From: Candidatus Stahliibacteriota bacterium
GTDB lineage: Bacteria; Hydrothermota; Tepidihabitantia; SM23-42
DNA: 64,000 nucleotides
Assembly (NCBI GenBank): GCA_030602565.1
Contig: JAUVZL010000003.1
Span: 4,160-68,159 of the forward strand
Direction: 5' to 3'
Shown here: piece by piece, positions 11,021 to 49,943 of the stretch
How positions within the stretch are numbered: position 1 is the stretch's first letter
How the letters are laid out: every line of letters starts with the position of its first letter
Made by a program: the position numbers and the translations under genes
Notes under the pieces: generated by a model
What the model was told of the DNA's origin: nothing
Database searches by the model: none
The model's input: the letters and a program-made list of their open reading frames with translations, nothing else

Positions 11021-12314
11021 AATAGTAAAAACAGCGGCAGTTATTTCTGCACTTTTAATTATTTACTGTACTGCAGTAAACATATTTGCTGCACGCTACT
11101 ACCGTCTGCTTGAATTTGAAAGAAAGATATTCCTTGGTTTAAAAGCAATCGATACTCTGGCAGCAGAAGAATATATCAATTTACCATCAGCATCTGAGCG
11201 CGGAAAATACTATAACGCCTTTTGGGAAAACAAAGAAGCTGCAGACCGCGAGCAATTTGAAGAGAGGATAGAGTATGCCTTTCGCCAATATGGCAAGCAT
11301 TCGCCAATAAGTGATGAGCGTATACAGATATTTGTTAAATACGGTGAACCTTCAAAGAGAGAAGAAATCTGGCCCCAAAAGAAAATTGCCGTGAAAGTCA
11401 AAGAATCAGTGAAGCCTGCCGAAATATGGACATATAAACGAGAAGGTTTGATTTTTGATTTTGTCAGGTATGCGCGCGCCTATAAGATGATTGCCCGGTC
11501 AGAATTCGGCGAGCATGTGAAAGTACCTCATTTAAAAGAAGTGCATCAGGATAGCTTTATAGAAGTTGAATCGACATCGTTACTCGAATTTGCTATGACT
11601 ACCGGGAGATTTCGACAAAAGAAAAATTTGACCCGTCTTGAAATATATTTATCCGTATTGATTAATGACACAACCGGGATTTCTTTTTCAAGACAGGTAA
11701 AGCTGTTTGATAACCAGGATAATATCGTTAAAGAAAAGAATAGTATTCTAATCCCCGTAGACAGTGACCATGGGGTTTTCTTTGATGAGGTTAATTTCTG
11801 GTTCGATCCGGCAGAGTATCGGCTGGAAATTATAATGAGCGACATCAGTAACCGAACCGTAGGTAAGAAAACACTTTGGGTCAACCTGCTCGATTATCAG
11901 GATGATGCCAAAGAGATTAGTGATCTGGTTCCGATGTGGTTGATCGATAACACTTTTTCGCACGAAAAATTCAACAAACCAGTGGGCCGGGTCATCCCGA
12001 TGACCCAACCAGCATTATTGATCCACACCCCTTTTTACTTCTACGCCGAGGTCTATAACCTCGAAACTAAGAATGGTATGCATCAATTGAAGATGACTTA
12101 TGAAGTCATCAATAAAGCGAAGATGAAAAGAGAAATTGTCGATGTTGTGATCAAAGACCAAATAGAGGCGGGCGATGTCGCCTATTTAGCAGCTCTATAT
12201 CACCCTATGGATCTTGAACCTGGTTTTTATATTATTACTTTACGGACCGCGGATTTGCTAAGTGGTAAAGAACGGACTGCGGTCTGTGAATTTGAACTAC
12301 ACCCAATAGAATAG
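11007..12314 (+). CDS. GWxTD-domain-like protein, paralog
   Basis: N-terminal TM/signal segment (VKTAAVISALLIIYCTAVNIFA); ERGKYYNAFWENKEA and DERIQIFVKYGEPSKREEIW motifs; start uncertain (TTG at 11007 or ATG at 10950). Confidence 0.45.
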   Translation: MKKNRIVKTAAVISALLIIYCTAVNIFAARYYRLLEFERKIFLGLKAIDTLAAEEYINLPSASERGKYYNAFWENKEAADREQFEERIEYAFRQYGKHSPISDERIQIFVKYGEPSKREEIWPQKKIAVKVKESVKPAEIWTYKREGLIFDFVRYARAYKMIARSEFGEHVKVPHLKEVHQDSFIEVESTSLLEFAMTTGRFRQKKNLTRLEIYLSVLINDTTGISFSRQVKLFDNQDNIVKEKNSILIPVDSDHGVFFDEVNFWFDPAEYRLEIIMSDISNRTVGKKTLWVNLLDYQDDAKEISDLVPMWLIDNTFSHEKFNKPVGRVIPMTQPALLIHTPFYFYAEVYNLETKNGMHQLKMTYEVINKAKMKREIVDVVIKDQIEAGDVAYLAALYHPMDLEPGFYIITLRTADLLSGKERTAVCEFELHPIE

Positions 12315-37963: not shown

Positions 37964-38170
37964 TTGATTAACTATTGAACCCGAGTTTTATCCTAATAAT
38001 CATTAGTATCTTTTTCATAGAATCTCCAAGATGAGTATTATACTTTGATTTGAGGGAAAGTCAACCATTCCTCACTCGTTACTGCGAGCGTAAGCGCCTG
38101 CCCCATCAGTTAGTAAACATACGGGGAAGCAATTTCTGGTAATACTATAGTTATAGAGCTTGCGAGATAC

Positions 38171-38225
38171 CCCCTCACCCTCACCCTCTCCCCCTTATAG
38201 GGGGAGAGGAAAAAGGAGAGGGGGA
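38171..38225. repeat. GA/CT-rich hairpin repeat, copy 4 (CCCCTCACCCTCACCCTCTCCCCC-ttat-AGGGGGAGAGGAAAAAGGAGAGGGGG)
   Basis: Nearly identical to the copies at 41774 and 42454. Confidence 0.75.
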
Positions 38226-39373: not shown

Positions 39374-39565
39374 TGTTTCCTCCTTATTTTCGTAGGGCGC
39401 CATGAATGGCGCGACTACAGTTCCATTATTTACGAACAAAGAATTGCAGCTTCACAATATCTTCATTCCTTATTTCAAAAAACATCTTCAAGATAACCTC
39501 GCCATCGCTCGGTTATCATGCTAATTCTCTCCTCTTGTTCACTCTTATAGGAGAGTATAAAAACG

Positions 39566-39639
<74 letters not shown>

Positions 39640-40576: not shown

Positions 40577-40776
40577 TTAATACAAAAATGGGAAAAGCAA
40601 CGAGGGGACTGCCCGTATGTTTAGTGACTGACGTGGCAGGTATGACTGGATTGCCCGATCAAGTCGGGCAATGACAGGGAGGAGTGATCGGGCAATGACG
40701 CAGGTGTATGGATTAGGCACTGATTTCTCTATTGTCATTATCCAACTTGATTGGATAATCCAGAGGAGTAGTAAGT

Positions 40777-41001
40777 GGGGTCAAATCTCTACATTGAACA
40801 AGACAATTCAAATAATGTTGGTGCATGAGTTCCGGCTGATGCTTGTTCAATGTAGACAGGCTGACCGAGAATACCGGAATTTAGCCTTTAGGCTTTCACA
40901 AATAAACAAAAAGTCTTGAAATTTCATTGTTCTTTTTGCGCGAGACAAGTCTCGCTACTCCATTTTTTGAATTCTCGGTCAGCCTGTAGAGATTTGACCC
41001 C
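40777..41001. mobile_element. MITE-like element, copy 2 (GGGGTCAAATCTCTACA..AGGCTGACCGAGAAT / ATTCTCGGTCAGCCTGTAGAGATTTGACCCC)
   Basis: About-31-bp terminal inverted repeats matching copy 1; lies between the two paralogous genes. Confidence 0.55.
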
Positions 41002-41017
41002 AGACGGTACCCAAAAC

Positions 41018-41734
41018 TCACTCGATGATTCTCTGCAAATATTTCTCATTTTGATAGTAATTGTAATTTCGCACGGCATTGATACCGCCATAGATATTCG
41101 CGATATAGAAAAGCCCGGTTGCTCCGAGACAAATACCGTATTTTATATCTTCATTCTCATGAAGGTAGTAGTAGGAGAGGAGCGCTGAGGTACCAATAAG
41201 AAAAAAGGAGAACATACCGTCACCGAACCTGCCGCAGTACCAATGCCCGCCGCCCGGGAACAAAGCACAGAGTGCACCTAAACCAGGTTTCTTGTAGGTC
41301 GGTTTGTCTGGAGGAAGACTTAGATACTCTTCTGCCTTTTGGAATCGAAATTCAAATGCATAGCTCAAACCGATGATTTTATTAGCTTCTTTATTATAAG
41401 GTTCTCTAATATCAATAAGATGAGTGCGTGAGGAGTCGTATTGTTGAGCCACAAAGAAGACAGTGCCCTTAGTGAATTCCCTTTGCACTTCATCTTTGAT
41501 ATCATTACATTTAACTAATGCTTCATCGTACCTTTGTAAATTGATCAGGCAGTCAACGATTCTTGCCGGGATATCGCTGCGCATTGAATCAGTAAGAAAC
41601 TGGTACCTTTGATACTCATTTAGCGCTGCTGCATAGTCTTCCTGAATATATAGGTGATCGGCAAATGCCAGGATATTCTCTTCGGAAAAGGTGTTTATAG
41701 GCTGGGCATAAAGTAATAGCAAAAGCAGGGTCAT
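41018..41734 (-). CDS. Hypothetical membrane protein with an FPGGGHWYCG motif, paralog B
   Basis: See paralog A. Confidence 0.4.
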   Translation of the reverse strand: MTLLLLLLYAQPINTFSEENILAFADHLYIQEDYAAALNEYQRYQFLTDSMRSDIPARIVDCLINLQRYDEALVKCNDIKDEVQREFTKGTVFFVAQQYDSSRTHLIDIREPYNKEANKIIGLSYAFEFRFQKAEEYLSLPPDKPTYKKPGLGALCALFPGGGHWYCGRFGDGMFSFFLIGTSALLSYYYLHENEDIKYGICLGATGLFYIANIYGGINAVRNYNYYQNEKYLQRIIE

Positions 41735-41773
41735 TTTTCTAGCAACACTCTATAGTACGACAACGAGGGGACT

Positions 41774-41829
41774 CCCCCTCACCCTTACCCTCTCCCCCTA
41801 TAAGGGGGAGAGGAAAAAGGAGAGGGGGT
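41774..41829. repeat. GA/CT-rich hairpin repeat, copy 5
   Basis: CCCCTCACCCTTACCCTCTCCCCC-tata-AGGGGGAGAGGAAAAAGGAGAGGGGG. Confidence 0.75.
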
Positions 41830-42042
41830 GAATGGAGATCGCAATGACAAGAAAGAGTATATCGTGATAACACAGGAGAGAATATTTCATGATGACCAAC
41901 TTTTTTTGTCATTGCGAGGTCGCTGAAAGCGGTCGCGGCAATCTCACAAATTATTATTGAGATTGCTTCGTCACTTCGTTTCTCGCAATGACAGAAAGGG
42001 GAAAATTCCTCGCAATGCTTTATCATTATTTGCACACCACAA

Positions 42043-42399
42043 CTAGTCATCGAGCGTGGTATCCGTTATCCTGCGTTTTTTGAATATAAAATTATTCTCA
42101 ACTGGGTCATAGATCTTGCCGTTCTTTATGCCGGAGTAATAGGTGTTAAAATGCTCTACAGCCCAGGGGTTGCAGCGCATAAGCCGATCAACTGCCATTA
42201 ACGATCCGCAGATGACACCATATTTTTTTAACGCTTTTTTACTGAATCTTGAGCATGATGGCGTGAAATTGCAGACATCACCCTGGGTTGGTGCCACAAC
42301 TTTTTGATGGATAGTAATGCCTGTATTAATCACTATTTTCAGTGGGTTGGTTTCTCTGGGGGGTTGCATGAGGAGTAATGCACAAAATAAAATATGCAT
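42043..42399 (-). CDS. yidD: Membrane protein insertion efficiency factor YidD
   Basis: NFTPSCSRFSKKALKKYGVICGSLMAVDRLMRCNPW matches the YidD signature. Confidence 0.8.
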   Translation of the reverse strand: MHILFCALLLMQPPRETNPLKIVINTGITIHQKVVAPTQGDVCNFTPSCSRFSKKALKKYGVICGSLMAVDRLMRCNPWAVEHFNTYYSGIKNGKIYDPVENNFIFKKRRITDTTLDD

Positions 42400-42453
42400 A
42401 TAGTATTTTAAGCATTTATTTTAGAAAATCAAGTAGCCTGCAACCAAGGACTT

Positions 42454-42508
42454 CCCCTCACCCTTACCCTCTCCCCCTTACAGGGGGAGAGGAAAAAGGA
42501 GAGGGGGT
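42454..42508. repeat. GA/CT-rich hairpin repeat, copy 6
   Basis: CCCCTCACCCTTACCCTCTCCCCC-ttac-AGGGGGAGAGGAAAAAGGAGAGGGGG. Confidence 0.75.
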
Positions 42509-42550
42509 ATTTGTAGCTTGATTTTTTCGCAGGATTCAATATGCTAAGAT

Positions 42551-43219
42551 ATGATACGACAATATATCAAGGAAATCAAACAGTTGGATCTTGAAACTGT
42601 CATTATTGTTATTTACTCGACTTTTGTACTTCTGTTTGGTATATATCTACGTCGTATGCATTTTATCTTTTCGACGCGTGAAGAGATCTTCCTTGATAGA
42701 TTAATTATTATGGGTATATTATACGGCATTTCACCGTTGCCATTATTTTTCTTGTTCAAACGCAAGCCCAGAGATTATGGGGTCAGTCTGGGTAGGGTTA
42801 GGCAATGGCTAAGAGAAGTCGCGGTTTTTTATCTTATAATGGTATTCATTCTCTTGGTGGTATTCAAATTCACCGGCATGAAAGATTATTACCCTTTATA
42901 CCGCAAGGCGGCAAGAGGTATGAACTATTTTCTGCTGTATCAAGGCATACAACTATTCCACATGTTCACCTGGGAGTTCTTTTTCAGAGGGTTTATGCTA
43001 TTCGGACTGGAGAAGAAGTTTGGCAAGGCGAGTATCCTTGTTCAAACAATCCCTTTCGCCATTATGCATTACAGAAAAAAACCTTTAGAAGCCTATGGAT
43101 CGATATTTGCCGGCATATTTTTGGGTATCCTTGGTTTACGTTCCCGAAGCTTCTTACCCTGCGCTCTACTACATTTTCTGGTCGCTCTAAGTGCGGATTT
43201 ACTGGGGATAGTGTTTTGA
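42551..43219 (+). CDS. CPBP-family (CAAX/Abi) intramembrane metalloprotease
   Basis: EFFFRGF and AIMHY motifs with multiple TM helices. Confidence 0.75.
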   Translation: MIRQYIKEIKQLDLETVIIVIYSTFVLLFGIYLRRMHFIFSTREEIFLDRLIIMGILYGISPLPLFFLFKRKPRDYGVSLGRVRQWLREVAVFYLIMVFILLVVFKFTGMKDYYPLYRKAARGMNYFLLYQGIQLFHMFTWEFFFRGFMLFGLEKKFGKASILVQTIPFAIMHYRKKPLEAYGSIFAGIFLGILGLRSRSFLPCALLHFLVALSADLLGIVF

Positions 43220-43369
43220 GTAATTTATTTTCTTGATCTGATTTATATTATCGTGGCTAAACAAGGGTATTTTGGCTTCAAGGTGAATAGAAAAGATTAT
43301 TTCAACTGGTCAAAGGAGGATTTAATCCAAAGGCAATGCATAAACGATAAAACCGAAGGATTAACCTTC

Positions 43370-43397
43370 TTGACATAAATCATGAGAAAGATATAGT
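43370..43397 (+). promoter_or_regulatory. Promoter TTGACA-16 nt-TATAGT ahead of the AlbA_2 fragment and fic
   Basis: Consensus hexamers followed by a GGAGG RBS and an ATG at 43426. Confidence 0.5.
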
Positions 43398-43425
43398 TCA
43401 TACATGGAGGTAGTGAAATAAGTGC

Positions 43426-43626
43426 ATGAAAAAATTGACTGAATCAGAAGTAGTCGAATTAAAACCAAGTTTATCACAGGCTGATAGGATTGTGGAGACG
43501 GTGGCGGCGATGGCGAACAGAAATAAGGGTGTTTATTGTTTCTGTCTACAGAACTTGACAAGACGTCTATTTCTGTTTATAATGAAAAACAGAAATAGCG
43601 AAGTGCCTTATTTCTGTTTCAAATAG
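43426..43626 (+). pseudogene. 5-prime fragment of a COG2865-type gene (AlbA_2/Schlafen N-terminus, about 44 aa), truncated
   Basis: ESEVVELKPSLSQADRIVETVAAMANRNKG matches the AlbA_2 start; the remainder of the ORF is unrelated and runs into the palindrome. Confidence 0.55.
43567..43626. promoter_or_regulatory. Perfect 12-bp inverted repeat (CTATTTCTGTTT-ataatgaa-AAACAGAAATAG) plus a third half-site, 13 nt ahead of the fic RBS
   Basis: AT-rich palindrome without a GC stem or T-tract; reads as an operator rather than a terminator. Confidence 0.45.
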
Positions 43627-43638
43627 AGGAGGCTCGAA

Positions 43639-44820
43639 ATGCGCAGTGGCTGGTGGCTTAAACAACTTTCCGGTGAATTGGGATATCAAGCATTTGTGCC
43701 TAATAAGTTGCCCTATGAAAGCACACCACAAATTGATGAGCTTATTCTGGATCTGCTTTCCGAGGCAAGCATATTATTGGGACGCCTTGATGGTATTACT
43801 GAACTCTTACCTGACCCAAATTTTTTTATCTTAATGTATATAAAGAAAGAAGCAACATCTTCAGCACAAATAGAGGGAACACAGGCTACCTTTGCTGATT
43901 TGTTAAAGCATGAAGCAAAAATTAAGGATCCAAAGATTCCAGATGATGTTAAGGAAATTGTTAATTATATAAATGCAATGAATTATGGTGTAAGAAGATT
44001 GGAAACACTGCCATTGTCACTACGACTTATTAGAGAAATACATAAGATTCTTCTAAAAGATGTCAGAGGACAAGAGCGATATCCTGGCGAATTCAGAAAA
44101 TCACAAAATTGGGTTGGAGGTAGGACAATAAATCTCGCGACCTATGTTCCACCACCTGCCCATGAATTACCGGGACTTCTTGATAATTTCGAGAAATTCT
44201 TGCATCTAAAGACGAAGATGCCAATTCTCATTAAAACTGCTTTAACTCATGCACAGTTTGAGCTCATTCATCCTTTTTTGGATGGAAATGGCAGGACTGG
44301 AAGACTTCTTATAACTTTTTATCTATACCATGAGAAAAAATTAAACAGACCTCTGCTTTATCTTTCAGATTATTTTCATAGATACAGACAGGAATATTAT
44401 GATCATTTGAATGCTATTTCCAAACGCGACGATATTGAAGGCTGGATAAAATATTTTTTGGATGGCGTCATCACTGTCTCCAAGGATGCTATAATTCTCG
44501 CTCAAAAAATAATCAATCTGAGAAAAGAAGACGAGAAAAAAATAATGACCTCAGGGAAAGCGGCGAAAAGCGGAATTAAACTCTTAGATTATCTATACAC
44601 AAACCCGATTGTAACAGGAAATCTCACTGAGGAAATTACCGGTTTATCTCCCTCTAATGCAAGAAATTTGATAAACAAATTTATTAAGATGGCTATTTTA
44701 AGACAAATGGATAAAAGACAGCGGGGAAAACGGTTTGTCTATGAACGATATATGGCATTATTTTCTGATGAATCACAGAATTCTAGCGAGAGGTTAATCA
44801 GAAAACAGAAAGAAGAATGA
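43639..44820 (+). CDS. fic: Fic-family protein (class II, with inhibitory S-x-x-x-E-G helix and C-terminal wHTH)
   Basis: HPFLDGNGRTGR active-site motif; SSAQIEG inhibitory motif; 393 aa. Confidence 0.85.
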   Translation: MRSGWWLKQLSGELGYQAFVPNKLPYESTPQIDELILDLLSEASILLGRLDGITELLPDPNFFILMYIKKEATSSAQIEGTQATFADLLKHEAKIKDPKIPDDVKEIVNYINAMNYGVRRLETLPLSLRLIREIHKILLKDVRGQERYPGEFRKSQNWVGGRTINLATYVPPPAHELPGLLDNFEKFLHLKTKMPILIKTALTHAQFELIHPFLDGNGRTGRLLITFYLYHEKKLNRPLLYLSDYFHRYRQEYYDHLNAISKRDDIEGWIKYFLDGVITVSKDAIILAQKIINLRKEDEKKIMTSGKAAKSGIKLLDYLYTNPIVTGNLTEEITGLSPSNARNLINKFIKMAILRQMDKRQRGKRFVYERYMALFSDESQNSSERLIRKQKEE

Positions 44821-45233
44821 TAATGATGCTTGAACGTCAGTCAAGATCTTTTAATCCACTGATAGCAAAGGCTTTTTTCTGGATAAAATATATCGAGGAA
44901 GTCGGCACCGGGACAAATAAGATAATTGAGTGGTGTAAGGATTGGGGCATTGCGGAACCGGATTTTGAGTGTGCAGGGTCAAGCATTGTGATTACAATTA
45001 GAAAATCCAAACTGACAGAAGAATATTTAACGAATCTGGGCTTAAATGAACGAGAATTGGAAATTATTGAGCAAATAAAAGCAAATAAAAAGACGACAAG
45101 TGGTGAGATTCAAAAATTGTTTAATGTAAGGAGAAAAGCAGCAAATAGTTATCTAAAAAGATTGATTGATTTGAAACTTATTAAGAGGATGGGAACAGGC
45201 AAGGCGGTTTACTATGTTCTCACGGCTAAATAG
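44817..45233 (+). pseudogene. 3-prime fragment of a COG2865-type gene (end of HATPase_c_4 plus wHTH), overlapping the fic stop by 4 nt
   Basis: NPLIAKAFFWIKYIEEVGTGTNKII is the conserved HATPase_c_4 tail; C-terminal wHTH; may still be expressed as a 138-aa protein. Confidence 0.5.
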
Positions 45234-45527
45234 TTTTCACAGTCTTGCGTTTCCCTTGCGTTTCCTTTGCGTCAAATATGCGTCAATTTTGTATCAGATT
45301 TTGCGGTGCATATACGGGGAATCTACGACATATGCGTACGATTGACGGACAATTATGCATTATAGGAATAACCATGCTTGAGCGGCAGACTTTTCAGAAT
45401 AAAGATTTGGTTCTTAAAGTATCACCAAATTATAGCCCAAAGAAATTTGACCCGAATAATAAGGAGAAAATTAGTAAAAAAGATTATAGCAATTGGTCAG
45501 ATTTAGAATAATGAAAAATGAAAAGCG

Positions 45528-45832
45528 GTGTATGAGAAGTATAATAATGATAATGAAGGCAGAAATAAACAAGGGCTGGATGGGGGTGAAGAACAAATTT
45601 GGTGACGGCATTTATAAGATGATATGTTATAAGATTCTGGATTCCCGCCTCCGCGGGAATGACAATGTCGGAAATGAACACGGGAATGAACCTGTACAAC
45701 TTCGTTTTACGGGGCAGGCATAAGGTGTTAGGGAATGACCCGGGATAACTTCGTTTTACGGGGCAGGCATAAGGTGCCAGGGAATGACAGTCCTCCCTTT
45801 TCCGTCATTCCTGCGAAAGCAGGAATCTAAAG
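45528..45832. repeat. Repeat segment A: about-120-bp unit, palindrome CTGGATTCCCGC-ctc-GCGGGAATGAC, two tandem 49-bp units (ACTTCGTTTTACGGGGCAGGCATAAGGTGCCAGGGAATGAC) and palindrome GTCATTCCTGC-gaaa-GCAGGAAT
   Basis: Duplicated at 47815-48110 with about 95% identity. Confidence 0.75.
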
Positions 45833-45844
45833 AATAGATAGTAG

Positions 45845-46132
45845 ATGACAAAATTTTATGTCTACATTTTAGCCAATAAGAGAAATGGAACCTTGTACAT
45901 CGGCGTAACCAATAATTTGATTAAAAGAGTATATGAGCACAAAAATAATTTAGTTAAAGGCTTTACTCAAAAATATAATGTCCATAAATTGGTATGTTAT
46001 GAAGTATTTGATAATGCGTACGATGCCATTACAAGAGAAAAACGGATAAAAAAGTGGAAAAGACAATGGAAAGTAGCGTTGATCGAAAAGGAGAATCCTA
46101 ATTGGGAAGACTTATTTGAGACACTATTGTAA
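45845..46132 (+). CDS. GIY-YIG nuclease-family protein (COG2827-like), 95 aa
   Basis: FYVYILANKRNGTLYIGVTNNLIKRVYEHK motif. Confidence 0.8.
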   Translation: MTKFYVYILANKRNGTLYIGVTNNLIKRVYEHKNNLVKGFTQKYNVHKLVCYEVFDNAYDAITREKRIKKWKRQWKVALIEKENPNWEDLFETLL

Positions 46133-46407
46133 GGATCCTGGATTCCTGCTTTCGCAGGAATGACAAGGAGGAAAAGACAGGAATGCTAAGGAGGGCAGGA
46201 ATGACCCCGTACAACTTCGTTTTACGGGGCAGGCATAAGGTGCCAGAGAATGACAAGTAGATAAACCAATGATTGATAATTATTTCGCTATTTCAACAAT
46301 CCTTTTTTCCTAAAGCAGTGTAAAATAGGTAATGTCGTATGCAGTAGTTCAATTACCATTGATTAGAAAGTGGGGCATAACATAATGTAAGAAAATAAAA
46401 CATCATA

Positions 46408-46435
46408 TTGACAAATTATCTAACATGAATATAAT
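46408..46435 (+). promoter_or_regulatory. Promoter TTGACA-16 nt-TATAAT for the antitoxin-toxin operon
   Basis: Consensus hexamers, AAGGAGATG RBS, flanking ATTAT/ATAAT dyad. Confidence 0.5.
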
Positions 46436-46452
46436 AACTAAAAGGAGATGAA

Positions 46453-47241
46453 ATGTCTAAAGTTGGTGAAAGAATAAAGAAATTACGAAAAACTGCCGGT
46501 TTTACCCAGGAAAGACTTGCTAAATTACTGGGTATTTCAAGGCCCGCAATTTCGCAGATTGAAAATAGCGAACGAAAAATCTGTGCTGAGGAATTGCAGA
46601 AATTGGCAGAGATTTTTAATGTCTCGGTTGATAGTTTGCTAAATCCTGAGAAAGAGCCAGCAGTGATTATAAGAGAGAACCGAGCAAATTATAAACCAAG
46701 AGTGGCTAAACAACGAATTAGAGTCAATGTACCTCAGAAGAACCTTGAAAAATTCAAGGAAGTTTTTCTCTATATTCTCTCTAAGGTAGGTTCAAAACCG
46801 AATGTTGGCGAAACCGTAATTTACAAGCTACTCTATTTTCTTGATTTCGATTATTATGAAAAATATGAAGAGCAGCTAATTGGTGCAACCTATATCAAAA
46901 ATCGCCACGGTCCTACGCCTTTAGAATTCAAGAAGATAGTTGAAAAGATGATAAAAGAAAAAGAGATTGAAAAGGTTGATAGCAAATATTTTGAATATCC
47001 TCAGACAAAATACTTACCACTGCGAAAACCTGATTTTTTGAAGTTGAAAGCAACTGAAATTGAGGTCGTTGATGAAGTTCTGAATAAGCTTTCGGATATG
47101 AACGCAAATCAGATAAGCGAATATTCTCATAATGATGTGCCCTGGTTAACAACCGGAGAAAATAAAGTCATTGAATATGAATCCGTGTTCTATAGAACAC
47201 CGCTTTATTCAGTAAGAGAGTATAGTGGAAATATTCAATGA
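46453..47241 (+). CDS. HTH_XRE plus Panacea (DUF4065)-domain antitoxin, PanA-type
   Basis: N-terminal LRKTAGFTQERLAKLLGISRPAISQIEN HTH; C-terminal KLLYFLDFDYYEKYEEQLIGATYIKNRHGPTP Panacea/SocA-like core. Confidence 0.65.
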   Translation: MSKVGERIKKLRKTAGFTQERLAKLLGISRPAISQIENSERKICAEELQKLAEIFNVSVDSLLNPEKEPAVIIRENRANYKPRVAKQRIRVNVPQKNLEKFKEVFLYILSKVGSKPNVGETVIYKLLYFLDFDYYEKYEEQLIGATYIKNRHGPTPLEFKKIVEKMIKEKEIEKVDSKYFEYPQTKYLPLRKPDFLKLKATEIEVVDEVLNKLSDMNANQISEYSHNDVPWLTTGENKVIEYESVFYRTPLYSVREYSGNIQ

Positions 47242-47596
47242 GATATTCATACTTCCGGAATTTGCGAAAGATTTAAAGCACCTTCTTAAAAGATTTGGAA
47301 CTCTTGAAGACGACCTGAAAATATTCATTGAAAAAGAATTGTATCTATACCATAAATTAAAAATAGATAACAAAGGCGTATTTCGAATTGAAGGTTTAGG
47401 ATATGAAAAATTTAAAATCTATAAAGCAAAGAAATTCGCCTGCCGTTCCCTCCGCGGTAAGGGCGTACATTCGGGTATCCGAGTAATATATTCGTACGAT
47501 GAGGAATCAGATAAAGTTGAGCTAATTGAAATCTATTATAAAGGTGACAAGAAAATTGAGGACCGGAACCGGATACACAAACACTATGAAAAATGA
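47225..47596 (+). CDS. RelE/ParE-superfamily toxin-like protein
   Basis: GIRVIYSYDEESDKVELIEIYYKGDKK matches the RelE/ParE C-terminal beta-sheet motif; 17-nt overlap with the antitoxin gene. Confidence 0.6.
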   Translation: MEIFNEIFILPEFAKDLKHLLKRFGTLEDDLKIFIEKELYLYHKLKIDNKGVFRIEGLGYEKFKIYKAKKFACRSLRGKGVHSGIRVIYSYDEESDKVELIEIYYKGDKKIEDRNRIHKHYEK

Positions 47597-47814
47597 GTTA
47601 AATTTCAATCTTACAACAAAAATTTAACATGAATAAAAGAAATACGAGACGAAAGTGGAAGAGGTGGTTAAAGAAAGACCTGTTTTCTGAATTTGGATAT
47701 CTGGTAAAATTGAAAGTGGTGTTGCAATGATTTTCAACATTTTGAAAGAAAAAGAAAATGGTTTATGACATCTGCAACGTCCTCGGCGCGGCAGGGTTTG
47801 AGTATTTGAGAGAA

Positions 47815-48110
47815 GTGTATGAGAAGTATAATAATGATAATGAAGGCAGAAATAAACAAGGGCTGGATAGGGGTGAAGAACAAATTTAGTGGCGGCATTT
47901 ATAAGATGATATGTTATAAGATCCTGGATTCCTGCTTTTGCAGGAATGACCCGGGATAACTTCGTTTTACGGGGTAGGCATAGGGTGCCAGGGAATGACC
48001 CGGGATAACTTCGTTTTACGGGGCAGGCATAGGGTGCCAGGGAATGACAAGTAAGATAAAGCAGTAAAAATTCAGCTGGATTCCCTGGTCAAGCCAGGGA
48101 ATGACAGTTT
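47815..48110. repeat. Repeat segment A-prime (second copy of segment A, plus palindrome variant CTGGATTCCCTGG-tcaag-CCAGGGAATGAC)
   Basis: Self-comparison with 45528-45832. Confidence 0.75.
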
Positions 48111-48188
48111 ACCTTTTTTAGATTGTAATCCGTATTCTAATAATTGATAACTTTTCTCAATCTTAAATCTGCAATCTAAAGTCTGAAA

Positions 48189-49748
48189 TTACTTCGCTAT
48201 CTCAACTACTCTTTTTTCTCGTATTAGCGTGACTTTGATCTGTCCAGGGTATTGCGTTTCTTTTTCGATACGACGGGCAACTTCCTGAGCAAGATTTTCA
48301 GCTTCAATATCAGATATTTTTTCGGGCTGGACAATTACTCTAATTTCTCGTCCTGCCTGTATGGCAAAGACCCTTTCCACACCATCGAAAGAAGACGCAA
48401 GTTCTTCCAGTGTATTCAAGCGTTTGACGTACGCCTCAATGCTTTCGCGTCTCGCGCCAGGTCTGGAACCAGAGATTGAATCAGCTATTTCCACGATCCC
48501 CGCATATGGTGAGGTGGGCTTGATCTCTTCGTGGTGTGCTTCAATTGAATTGACAATAACTTCAGTTTCGCCAAATTTACTTGCAATTTCAGCACCTACG
48601 TGAGCGTGTGAACCTTCGATGTTTTTGTCAGCCACTTTGCCCAAGTCATGAAGCAATCCAGCCCGTTTCGCAACCGTTGCATCCAAACCTAATTCCTGAG
48701 CAAGGAGTGCCGAGAGATTGGCGACTTCTTTGGAATGCTGAAGAAGATTTTGACCGTAACTCGTACGGTATTTCATTCTGCCAAGGTAACTGATGATCTC
48801 TTGGGCAATACCGATAATGCCCATTTCCATAATCACATCTTCCCCCGTGTTCTTTATTAGCGTATCAAGTTCAGTGCGTGATGCTTTGACGACTTCCTCA
48901 ATTCTGGTTGGGTGTATCCGACCGTCAGAGATTAGTTTCTCCATTGCCATACGGGCGATTTCACGCCGGATTGGATCAAAGCATGAAAGAGAAATGCTTT
49001 CAGGTGTATCGTCAATAATAACTTCAACTCCAGTAAGGTTCTCAAACGATCTGATATTCCTGCCTTCCCGACCGATAATGCGCCCTTTCATTTCATCCGA
49101 AGGGATACCAACTACTGAAATCGTTGTTTCTGCAGTATGGGAAGTAGCACAGCGTTGGATTACCTGCAAGATTATTTCGCGCGCAGTGATTTCGGCTTTA
49201 GCCTTAGCTTCATCTTTGATTTGATTTATCAATGCCGCAGCTTCGTGTCTTGCTTCTGCTTCAAGGTTCTTCTTTAGTGCATTTTTGGCTTCTTCCTTTG
49301 ATAGATTGGCGATTTTTTGGAGGGCGGTATTCTGTTCTTTTATCATCTGGTCAAAACGCTCTGATTTTGCGTGGATGATCCGCTCTTTGTTTTGAAGGTT
49401 GTGTTCTTTTGTCAGAAGCTCTTTCTCTTTATCAACGATGAGGTGCTCACGCCGTCCTAAAACTATTTCTTTTTCAACAAAGCGCTTTTCGGCTTTTTCA
49501 ATTTCTTTTCTTTTGGAAGCAGTTTCTTTCTCAAACCTTAGCTTTTCCTGATACCACTGTTCTTTGGCAGTTATTTCAGAGGATTTTTTGTAGTTCTCCG
49601 CTTCTTTTTTTGCCTCTTCGATCATTTTTGATGCTTCGAGAGAGGCATTACTCAATTTGGTTTTACCAAATTTTATGTAAAAGTAAATGACTAAAGCAAC
49701 GGCAAGAAAAGCAATGCCGATGCCGATGAATATTTCTGGTAATATCAT
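48189..49748 (-). CDS. rny: Ribonuclease Y
   Basis: N-terminal TM helix, coiled coil, KH domain, HD domain (HSKEVANLSALLAQELG...LLHDLGK). Confidence 0.9.
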   Translation of the reverse strand: MILPEIFIGIGIAFLAVALVIYFYIKFGKTKLSNASLEASKMIEEAKKEAENYKKSSEITAKEQWYQEKLRFEKETASKRKEIEKAEKRFVEKEIVLGRREHLIVDKEKELLTKEHNLQNKERIIHAKSERFDQMIKEQNTALQKIANLSKEEAKNALKKNLEAEARHEAAALINQIKDEAKAKAEITAREIILQVIQRCATSHTAETTISVVGIPSDEMKGRIIGREGRNIRSFENLTGVEVIIDDTPESISLSCFDPIRREIARMAMEKLISDGRIHPTRIEEVVKASRTELDTLIKNTGEDVIMEMGIIGIAQEIISYLGRMKYRTSYGQNLLQHSKEVANLSALLAQELGLDATVAKRAGLLHDLGKVADKNIEGSHAHVGAEIASKFGETEVIVNSIEAHHEEIKPTSPYAGIVEIADSISGSRPGARRESIEAYVKRLNTLEELASSFDGVERVFAIQAGREIRVIVQPEKISDIEAENLAQEVARRIEKETQYPGQIKVTLIREKRVVEIAK

Positions 49749-49943
49749 GGCTACCCCTAACTTTCATAAATAAAACTATCAAATTAAACGTCCCCGCCTG
49801 TGTCGTGTGGGCAAAAGTCTCTGAACCCAGGTTAAAGGTGGGAGCCTGTCGACTACGAGAAATTCCCATAGCCGAACCGAGCTCCCTACAGATGGGTGTT
49901 GGCTCAAGACTAAATACCCATCACGAGCACGGCAGAGAACGAA

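Follow-up and report, generated by a model that had tools for sequence, protein, structure and literature searches.

What are the short, oriented hairpins that crowd a few intergenic regions in the genome of the uncultivated bacterium Candidatus Stahliibacteriota, and which protein, if any, do they serve? The question is raised by a 64,000-nucleotide stretch of contig JAUVZL010000003.1 (positions 4,160 to 68,159, hereafter the window), in which a first-pass annotation had noticed a hairpin repeat family with covarying stems. In this study, we conclude that these repeats are very probably Ssn-related motifs (SRM) of the NTS type, that is, the sites of a GIY-YIG nuclease, Ssn, encoded at 45845-46132, the gene and two of its sites being arranged as NTS-ssn-NTS. 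Motif identity, architecture, covariation and locus polymorphism are seen directly in the DNA, whereas the enzymology is what we infer from the literature on characterised homologues.

A nuclease of this kind was described by Chenal et al. (2025, Nat Commun 16:2388; PMC11893778). SsnA is a 94-aa single-domain GIY-YIG protein (CDD cd10448) with homologues across bacteria, of which 71% have at least one NTS-like motif and 42% have one on both sides (PMC11893778). In Neisseria, half of the copies of the dRS3 palindrome, ATTCCC-N8-GGGAAT, lie in a 28-nt oriented hairpin, the NTS, with the sequence CGTCATTCCCGCGMAVGCGGGAATCYRG (PMC11893778). SsnA binds the NTS only as single-stranded DNA (ssDNA), its cut falling a few nucleotides to the 5' side of the motif; the enzyme is inactive on the reverse strand, on double-stranded DNA and on RNA, and the RNA version of the site is not bound (PMC11893778). 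Binding depends critically on the C that follows the palindrome and cutting on the GTC that precedes it, while the identity of the loop is dispensable, the loop can be extended and the two halves of the site can be supplied in trans (PMC11893778). In N. meningitidis, transformation with DNA that bears the NTS is lowered about five-fold by SsnA, whose catalytic residues Y6, Y17 and E64 were mutated; the three homologues tested beyond SsnA, making four in all, cut their own motifs (PMC11893778).

Results

Seven oriented hairpins and one nuclease gene

The whole window was searched with a flank-plus-stem scan and with an oriented scan for GTC, a palindrome and C. Both returned the same seven clean copies, all of them within 40649-48105; outside 40.6-48.1 kb the 64-kb scan gave no clean copy, and the few other matches are long-looped and of the kind expected by chance. 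The six copies named in the first-pass annotation were each recovered where it had placed them, and a seventh on the opposite strand, at 40734-40760, had been overlooked. The gene and its full-length sites are the following.

40649-40675, minus strand: full SRM hairpin, 27-nt class, GTC-ATTGCCCGA-CTTGA-TCGGGCAAT-C, then CAG; fold -11.1 kcal/mol, z = -5.8
40734-40760, plus strand: full SRM hairpin, 27-nt class, GTC-ATTATCCAA-CTTGA-TTGGATAAT-C, then CAG; z = -3.3; the identical sequence occurs in the related locus L083
45640-45663, minus strand: full SRM hairpin, 24-nt class, GTC-ATTCCCGC-GGAG-GCGGGAAT-C, then CAG; z = -3.3
45804-45827, plus strand: full SRM hairpin, left bracket of ssn, GTC-ATTCCTGC-GAAA-GCAGGAAT-C; z = -5.3
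45845-46132, plus strand: ssn, gene for a 95-aa single-domain GIY-YIG nuclease; Pfam PF01541, E = 1.2e-17, residues 3-76
46141-46164, minus strand: full SRM hairpin, right bracket of ssn, stem ATTCCTGC; z = -3.5
47927-47950, minus strand: full SRM hairpin, GTC-ATTCCTGC-AAAA-GCAGGAAT-C, then CAG; z = -5.4
48079-48105, minus strand: full SRM hairpin, 27-nt class, GTC-ATTCCCTGG-CTTGA-CCAGGGAAT-C, then CAG; z = -4.6; 83 nt from the stop codon of the RNase Y gene

On the recognised strand the layout is YGTC-ATT[stem]-loop-[stem]AAT-CCAG. The motif is directional: in all seven copies the palindrome directly follows GTC and is directly followed by C, with CAG next in six of them. The conservation of the flanks, already noticed in the first reading, is thus real, but ATT and AAT do not belong to them: these letters form the outer three base pairs of the stem, which is preceded by unpaired GTC and followed by unpaired CCAG. 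The copies are of two lengths: in the 24-nt class eight base pairs close a loop of 4 nt (GAAA, GGAG or AAAA), and in the 27-nt class nine base pairs close the loop CTTGA. Together the stems of the seven copies comprise 59 pairs, every one of them Watson-Crick, and at the six pair positions that vary every change is compensated, as had been claimed for the stems. Folded as ssDNA, each copy is more stable than its shuffles (z = -3.3 to -5.8). The string GGAATGAC occurs 11 times against 2.0 expected, a count that none of 100 shuffles reached. Every copy is intergenic, and the check on orientation that had been proposed shows both orientations relative to the adjacent genes.

The two copies that bracket ssn are perfect inverted copies of each other (24 of 24 positions complementary), placed 17 nt upstream of the start codon and 8 nt after the stop codon. 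This GIY-YIG gene between two inverted hairpins, absent from the first-pass annotation, is the decisive feature of the locus. Apart from PF01541, Pfam gives only a sub-threshold, overlapping match to the related T5orf172 family, and a tblastn search of the window finds no second ssn gene of either subtype, so that the gene is single-copy here. The protein has more than 7,900 homologues, mostly of 94-100 aa. Y7, Y18, R28, H32 and E65 are invariant in an alignment of 21 sequences, and the spacings of Y7, Y18 and E65 (11 and 47 residues) are identical to those of Y6, Y17 and E64 in N. meningitidis SsnA. No exact database match to the window protein is on record, and a 91% identical relative, P0001, was used instead; a sequence search of the PDB returns no Ssn structure, only the distant UPF0213 protein 1zg2 (E = 1e-3), and NCBIfam holds no model specific to this protein. 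We have filed the repeats as SRM and the open reading frame as Ssn because the motif is the same, the consensus is NTS-like and the catalytic spacing matches.

Open reading frames that run across the hairpins, at 45493-45723 (plus strand), 46098-46256 (minus strand) and 47819-47959 (plus strand), are spurious, with peptides such as LDSRLRGND and SFLRKQES. In the database, the homologues P0007 (MSFLRRQES...) and P0107 (MSSPRKRGS...) carry N-terminal extensions that are the translated upstream hairpin. Such false N-termini are an annotation artefact, and they can be used as a text signature of SRM repeats.

Homologous loci and covariation of the stem

A scan of one genome per species gave 80 homologous ssn loci from more than 15 phyla, with proteins 56-72% identical, among them Planctomycetota, Nitrospirota, Omnitrophota, Patescibacteria, Bacteroidota, Pseudomonadota, Chloroflexota and Ignavibacteria; a single contig has been assigned to an archaeal metagenome-assembled genome (Halobacteria), an assignment to be taken with caution. 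An outward-facing hairpin is present on both sides of the gene in 59 of the 80 loci, on one side in 20 and on neither in one. The median distance from the gene is 28 nt upstream and 24 nt downstream, and hairpin density falls from 4.3 per kb beside the gene to 0.35 per kb more than 500 nt away. The 303 copies collected from these loci have the consensus YY-GTC-[hairpin]-C-CAG, which is that of the published NTS; their profile has Y at position -1, and after the final C the letters C, A and G stand at 80%, 88% and 54%. Two loci, L007 and L041 (Methylomonas), whose proteins are 62-67% identical to the window Ssn, carry TCATTCCCGCGAAAGCGGGAATCCAG, which fits the NTS consensus, in L041 at all 28 positions.

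The first reading had proposed that compensatory covariation implies selection on the hairpin. For this, copies were sampled by their flanks, as matches to GTCAT-N16-ATC within 250 nt of the genes, with no selection for pairing (132 instances, 48 of them distinct), and pairs were counted on a gapless alignment (A2), with 500 shuffles and slid partners as controls. Paired cells amount to 96.4%, as compared with 86.4% in shuffles and at most 47% with slid partners. Doubly changed, compensatory cells number 44, against 11.5 in shuffles, with only four one-sided and 14 broken cells, and they occur in five of the six unconstrained pairs; neither the observed pairing nor the number of double changes was reached in any of the 500 shuffles. 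The copies from the 80 loci therefore show the excess of compensatory over non-compensatory changes that selection on the hairpin predicts, and the proposal holds. The variation is centred on stem pair 3 (T-A, C-G or G-C) and pair 6 (C-G or T-A). Pairs 1, 2, 4, 5, 7 and 8 hardly vary, which implies that the sequence is recognised and not only the shape.

A few observations weigh against assigning the window copies to this family. The published SRM pattern, HGTCWYN(0-2)YYVSBRHN(0-5)WNVSBRGN(0-2)RNCYNB, has no match in the window, although it does match canonical NTS strings. In Neisseria, cleavage by the enzyme was lost when the palindrome was altered, even though the structure was preserved (PMC11893778). 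The single Ssn of the window may therefore not cut all five stem variants found here, especially not the 27-nt CTTGA class, and the window holds degenerate ATTGC-type copies with no cognate gene. As regards the pattern, it misses the window copies because it excludes the T-A pair of the CCTGC/GCAGG stems and the GGAG loop. CCTGC hairpins make up 58 of the 192 24-nt copies beside Ssn genes, the second commonest type. The pattern is thus too narrow, its failure does not make the window element foreign, and surveys built on it undercount, because it misses common natural variants.

Polar arrays of half-sites and a duplicated module

Besides the full sites, the same intergenic regions hold incomplete ones and larger duplications.

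40686-40699, minus strand: 5' half-site GTCATTGCCCGATC, 5' of the full hairpin 40649-40675
41839-42018, no strand assigned: degenerate ATTGC-type cluster, made of a half-site (41839-41848), a forward copy (41908-41947), a reverse copy (41959-41994) and a fragment (about 42009-42018)
45528-45663, no strand assigned: 136-nt direct repeat, copy 1, 93% identical to 47815-47950, ending in the SRM 45640-45663
45682-45690: degenerate half-site adjoining the units 45691-45788
45691-45788, minus strand: two 49-nt tandem units, each a 5' half-site (GTCATTCCCTGGCACC or GTCATTCCCTAACACC) plus a spacer with a small hairpin of the CCCCGTA/TACGGGG type
46198-46254, minus strand: one 49-nt unit (46206-46254) and the half-site GTCATTCC (46198-46205), 5' of the full SRM 46141-46164; z = -4.8
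47815-47950, no strand assigned: 136-nt direct repeat, copy 2, ending in the SRM 47927-47950
47951-48048, minus strand: two 49-nt half-site units, 98% identical to each other

The 136-nt repeat ending in a hairpin, together with two 49-nt units, forms a module of about 235-260 nt that is present twice, at 45528-45788 and 47815-48048, and the two copies flank ssn and the toxin-antitoxin pair. The 49-nt units end in GGGAATGAC, as had been stated of the tandem unit, with the exception of the single unit at 46206-46254, which ends in GAGAATGAC. As sites they are incomplete: on the recognised strand they have the 5' arm (GTCATTSC) without a 3' arm. In the window a full site on the same strand always follows the array on its 3' side, and in the 80 loci half-sites near a full site number 51 on its 5' side against eight on its 3' side. 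The array of L085 (13669-13912) has ten 27-nt units before a full ATTGC hairpin, and shorter arrays of the same polarity occur in L009, L021 and L079. The length of the unit differs from genome to genome: 49 nt in the window, 27 nt in L085 and about 20-25 nt elsewhere. Since the loop of the Neisseria site is extendable and its halves are separable (PMC11893778), a half-site could pair with a single 3' arm and so shift the position of the cut, or else the arrays may have been left behind by repair.

The ATTGC...GCAATGAC variants of the cluster at 41839-42018 had been recognised near 41880-42012, and both their presence and their degenerate character are borne out. They do not fold significantly, their folds being no better than those of shuffles (z = -1.2 and -0.7).

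Two chromosomal sites that differ between relatives

The full hairpins near ssn lie between an Rce1-like gene (42551-43219) and the RNase Y gene (48189-49748), and the genes between these two are accessory. According to a Pfam scan they encode a Fic protein, a truncated winged-helix protein, an HTH-SocA/Panacea antitoxin and a 123-aa partner of the antitoxin. The RNase Y of the window shares 84% identity with its counterpart in candidate division WOR_3 bacterium SM23_60, and WOR-3 bacteria make up most of the named relatives, so that the host belongs to WOR-3.

At the RNase Y/Rce1 site the window has a 5-kb island (43220-48188) with Fic, ssn and the toxin-antitoxin pair. In L081, ssn and hairpins are next to RNase Y (Ssn 91% and RNase Y 90% identical to those of the window). 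In L083 (RNase Y 90%) the site is a cluster of 487 nt that contains hairpins and half-sites but no gene. The first SRM of this cluster begins as far from the RNase Y stop codon as the window copy 48079-48105 does, and one of its hairpins, a 27-nt ATCCAA hairpin, is identical to 40734-40760. L084 has an unrelated short repeat, and in L085 and L086 the site is an empty spacer of 74 nt (RNase Y 86%). Within the L083 cluster, a hybrid hairpin (11834-11893) joins a 5' arm of the GCCCGA type, through an insertion of about 35 nt, to the 3' arm CCAGGGAAT; this 3' arm and its 3' flank match window 48079-48105, and the hybrid is about 200 nt from that first SRM. Such a hybrid implies a breakpoint within the hairpin, and its sequence suggests recombination with the breakpoint in the hairpin loop.

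The second site, p253/TPR238, holds two hairpins in the window. In L085 (13959-14246) and L086 it carries a second Ssn subtype, 57% identical to the window Ssn, in which IKAGSRQKK replaces KKWKRQWK and which is flanked by the ATTGC-type hairpins GTCATTGCGAGGAGCGAAGCGACGAAGCAATC. In L084 remnants of these hairpins are kept and the second-subtype gene is gone. The presence of this subtype at that site in relatives explains the orphan, decaying ATTGC copies of the window at 41839-42018.

Other repeats and RNA genes lie in the vicinity. A short repeat, GATACTGC(G/A)AG..., recurs several times beside RNase Y in L081 (660-780) and L084 (11690-11710) and is not found at the window site. An unrelated imperfect palindrome of about 57 nt, GGACT(C/T)CCCCTCACCCTTACCCTCTCCCCC...GGGGGAGAGGAAAAAGGAGAGGGGGT, has three intergenic copies in the window (38169-38225, 41769-41829 and 42448-42508), 93% identical where compared, for which Rfam returns only spurious sub-threshold microRNA matches. 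The hairpin pair 40649-40760 is directly adjoined by a 227-nt element (40776-41002) resembling a miniature inverted-repeat transposable element (MITE); its terminal inverted repeats, TGGGGTCAAATCTCTACA, are perfect over 18 nt and enclose two further, nested inverted repeats. A tRNA-Ile(GAT) gene (39565-39639, minus strand) lies about 1 kb from this pair, and a 6S RNA gene (49787-49941, minus strand), with 68 bits against a lower gathering score, is found immediately downstream of RNase Y.

Discussion

The window system resembles the published one in its protein of about 95 aa with a single GIY-YIG domain, in the bracketing of the gene by inverted, oriented hairpins, in the motif GTC-ATTCC[C/T]GC-loop-GC[G/A]GGAAT-C-CAG, in the clustering of intergenic copies round accessory genes and in the wide phylogenetic spread of the family. 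It differs in its host, an uncultivated WOR-3 bacterium absent from the main text of the paper; in its dominant stem, CCTGC/GCAGG, which the published pattern excludes; in its additional 27-nt CTTGA-loop class with a freely varying inner stem; and in the tandem 49-nt arrays of 5' half-sites, of which the main text of the paper makes no mention.

By homology with the characterised enzymes, a model can be proposed for the working of the system in this organism. When DNA becomes single-stranded, the strand reading GTCAT... would fold into the hairpin, and Ssn would bind the strand 5'-GTC-ATT..stem..loop..stem..AAT-C-3' and nick it a few nucleotides 5' of GTC. The predicted substrate is ssDNA carrying GTCATTCCTGCGAAAGCAGGAATCCAG, and duplex DNA and RNA would not be acted on. 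At the two copies that bracket ssn, the cut sides would face outward and lie on opposite strands. The covariation of the stem would mean that the hairpin must persist while a few pairs, mainly 3 and 6, may change. The putative sites are concentrated at two intergenic hot spots, with the accessory genes (Fic and the HTH-SocA/Panacea toxin-antitoxin genes) bracketed by them. It would fit these features that Ssn and its sites cut ssDNA intermediates, whether incoming, replicating or recombining, and thereby shape local recombination, a role that we infer. The differences between close relatives at the two hot spots fit such a role of the Ssn sites in ssDNA cutting and recombination, and suggest that SRM sites mark recombination-prone spots.

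The alternative that survives best concerns the origin and spread of the system rather than its parts: it has the same components as the Ssn/SRM reading and differs on why they are present. NTS-ssn-NTS would be an autonomous, selfish element, similar to an insertion sequence, with the GIY-YIG protein as its 'transposase', and the solo hairpins, doublets and half-site arrays would be no host system but its non-autonomous derivatives and scars, as REPINs and MITEs are for the REP-associated tyrosine transposases (RAYTs). The idea, also raised in the discussion of PMC11893778, is in keeping with the inverted terminal hairpins and their outward-facing cleavage sides, and with the occurrence of proteins of 56-72% identity in more than 15 phyla and on one archaeal contig, which suggests frequent horizontal transfer. 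Presence and absence at the two WOR-3 sites point in the same direction: ssn lies by RNase Y in the window and L081 and not in L083-L086, the second subtype is present in L085 and L086 and missing from L084, where hairpin remnants are left, and the window has the gene-less ATTGC-type doublet 41908-41994. However, target-site duplications are absent (none of 58 NTS-ssn-NTS units shares 3 nt or more), the two predicted cuts lie on opposite strands, unlike those of IS200/IS605, and a nuclease of 95 aa has no known strand-transfer or ligation activity. Moreover, the left and right stems are the same in only 24 of the 59 doubly bracketed loci, which would not be expected after fresh transposition, and the ssn genes of the window and L081 stand at the same chromosomal site, where 91% identity in Ssn against 90% in RNase Y is compatible with vertical inheritance. 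We therefore regard a selfish element as possible but rather doubtful.

Still more tentatively, and with a probability that we put lower again, the SRM clusters might be recombination landing pads that leave no target-site duplication. Through single-strand breaks made by Ssn, accessory cassettes and even ssn itself would then be captured, duplicated and lost, and the polar half-site arrays would be the footprint of repeated cleavage and repair or of template switching, or else alternative 5' arms that move the cut. If this were true, NTS-ssn-NTS would represent a new class of minimal mobile or recombination module spreading across phyla.

The first-pass annotation had also considered that the hairpins might act as RNA, as a small structured RNA, and they could equally be imagined as a stem-loop stabilising the 3' end of transcripts or as an intrinsic terminator. 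Several copies do lie just downstream of genes (8 nt after ssn, 83 nt after RNase Y), and the stems are G+C-rich and covarying. Against this, the copies occur in both orientations relative to genes, one of them preceding a start codon by 17 nt, the stems are not followed by a T-run, and the asymmetric GTC and CCAG flanks, conserved across phyla together with a nuclease gene, would be left unexplained by an RNA. An Rfam search at a permissive threshold over 38-50 kb returned tRNA-Ile, 6S RNA and noise, with no match to the hairpins at E <= 1; a sub-threshold FtrB match overlaps one copy (45784-45871; 31 bits against a gathering score of 66). We reject an RNA function, which is highly improbable, because of the mixed orientation, the lack of T-runs and of Rfam matches, and a partner family that is specific for ssDNA, Neisseria SsnA leaving the RNA version of its site unbound (PMC11893778).

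The likeness to repetitive extragenic palindromic (REP) elements, which had been drawn at the outset, is apt in the sense that here, too, oriented DNA hairpins occur dispersed and go with a nuclease gene of their own; it is right, and the structured-RNA reading wrong, because Ssn acts on the hairpin only as ssDNA. To take the hairpins for true REP elements or their mosaics (bacterial interspersed mosaic elements, BIMEs) served by a RAYT, an IS200/IS605-type Y1 HUH enzyme, or for integron attC sites, is the least credible proposal of all: the palindromes are indeed dispersed, intergenic and set in mosaic arrays with small accessory genes (Fic, toxin-antitoxin) between the clusters, yet none of the ten open reading frames scanned over 39.8-47.6 kb has a Y1 transposase or integrase domain, the gene consistently bracketed is a GIY-YIG one, and hairpins of 24-27 nt are too short for attC sites, of which inspection by eye, with no dedicated search, found no core sites. 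The length of attC sites is about 57-141 nt. As candidate identities, integron attC sites, CRISPR and terminators were all rejected, on size, the lack of associated genes, the lack of T-runs and mixed orientation.

The comparison with known systems nevertheless helps to place the Ssn/SRM arrangement. Like REP/BIME-RAYT systems and REPINs, it has a short, oriented extragenic palindrome, read as ssDNA by a specialised nuclease that is encoded between copies of it, and it forms mosaics and doublets. Unlike RAYT, Ssn has a GIY-YIG fold and chemistry instead of HUH Y1, its flanking hairpins are inverted, with cuts on opposite strands, and no covalent intermediate or strand transfer is known for it. 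With IS200/IS605 it shares subterminal hairpins recognised on ssDNA and the absence of a target-site duplication, but in IS200/IS605 TnpA (HUH) cleaves ends that lie on one strand, whereas the window element is only about 360 bp long and has another nuclease. In Neisseria, NIMEs are arrays of repeat units of 50-150 bp bounded by dRS3 and next to variable genes. The dRS3 palindrome ATTCCC-N8-GGGAAT shares its core with the window hairpins, and the 49-nt units ending in GGGAATGAC look analogous to NIMEs; these units, however, are bounded by half-sites of one orientation, with the 5' arm only, and not by complete dRS3 palindromes.

Altogether, the window system is a typical case of the kind published in 2025, in a phylum where it had not been studied, and it introduces no new principle. 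The Ssn/SRM system has so far been characterised only in Neisseria and Wolbachia, and judging from its genes and sites it is apparently intact here in WOR-3. The states found at a single chromosomal site in close relatives, empty, with hairpins only, and with hairpins and ssn with or without cargo, form a series that can be used to study how the element spreads. At the level of the family, the contrast between the free stem pairs (3 and 6) and the fixed ones provides a map of what these enzymes probably read, which would be useful for the engineering of Ssn-based tools for ssDNA.

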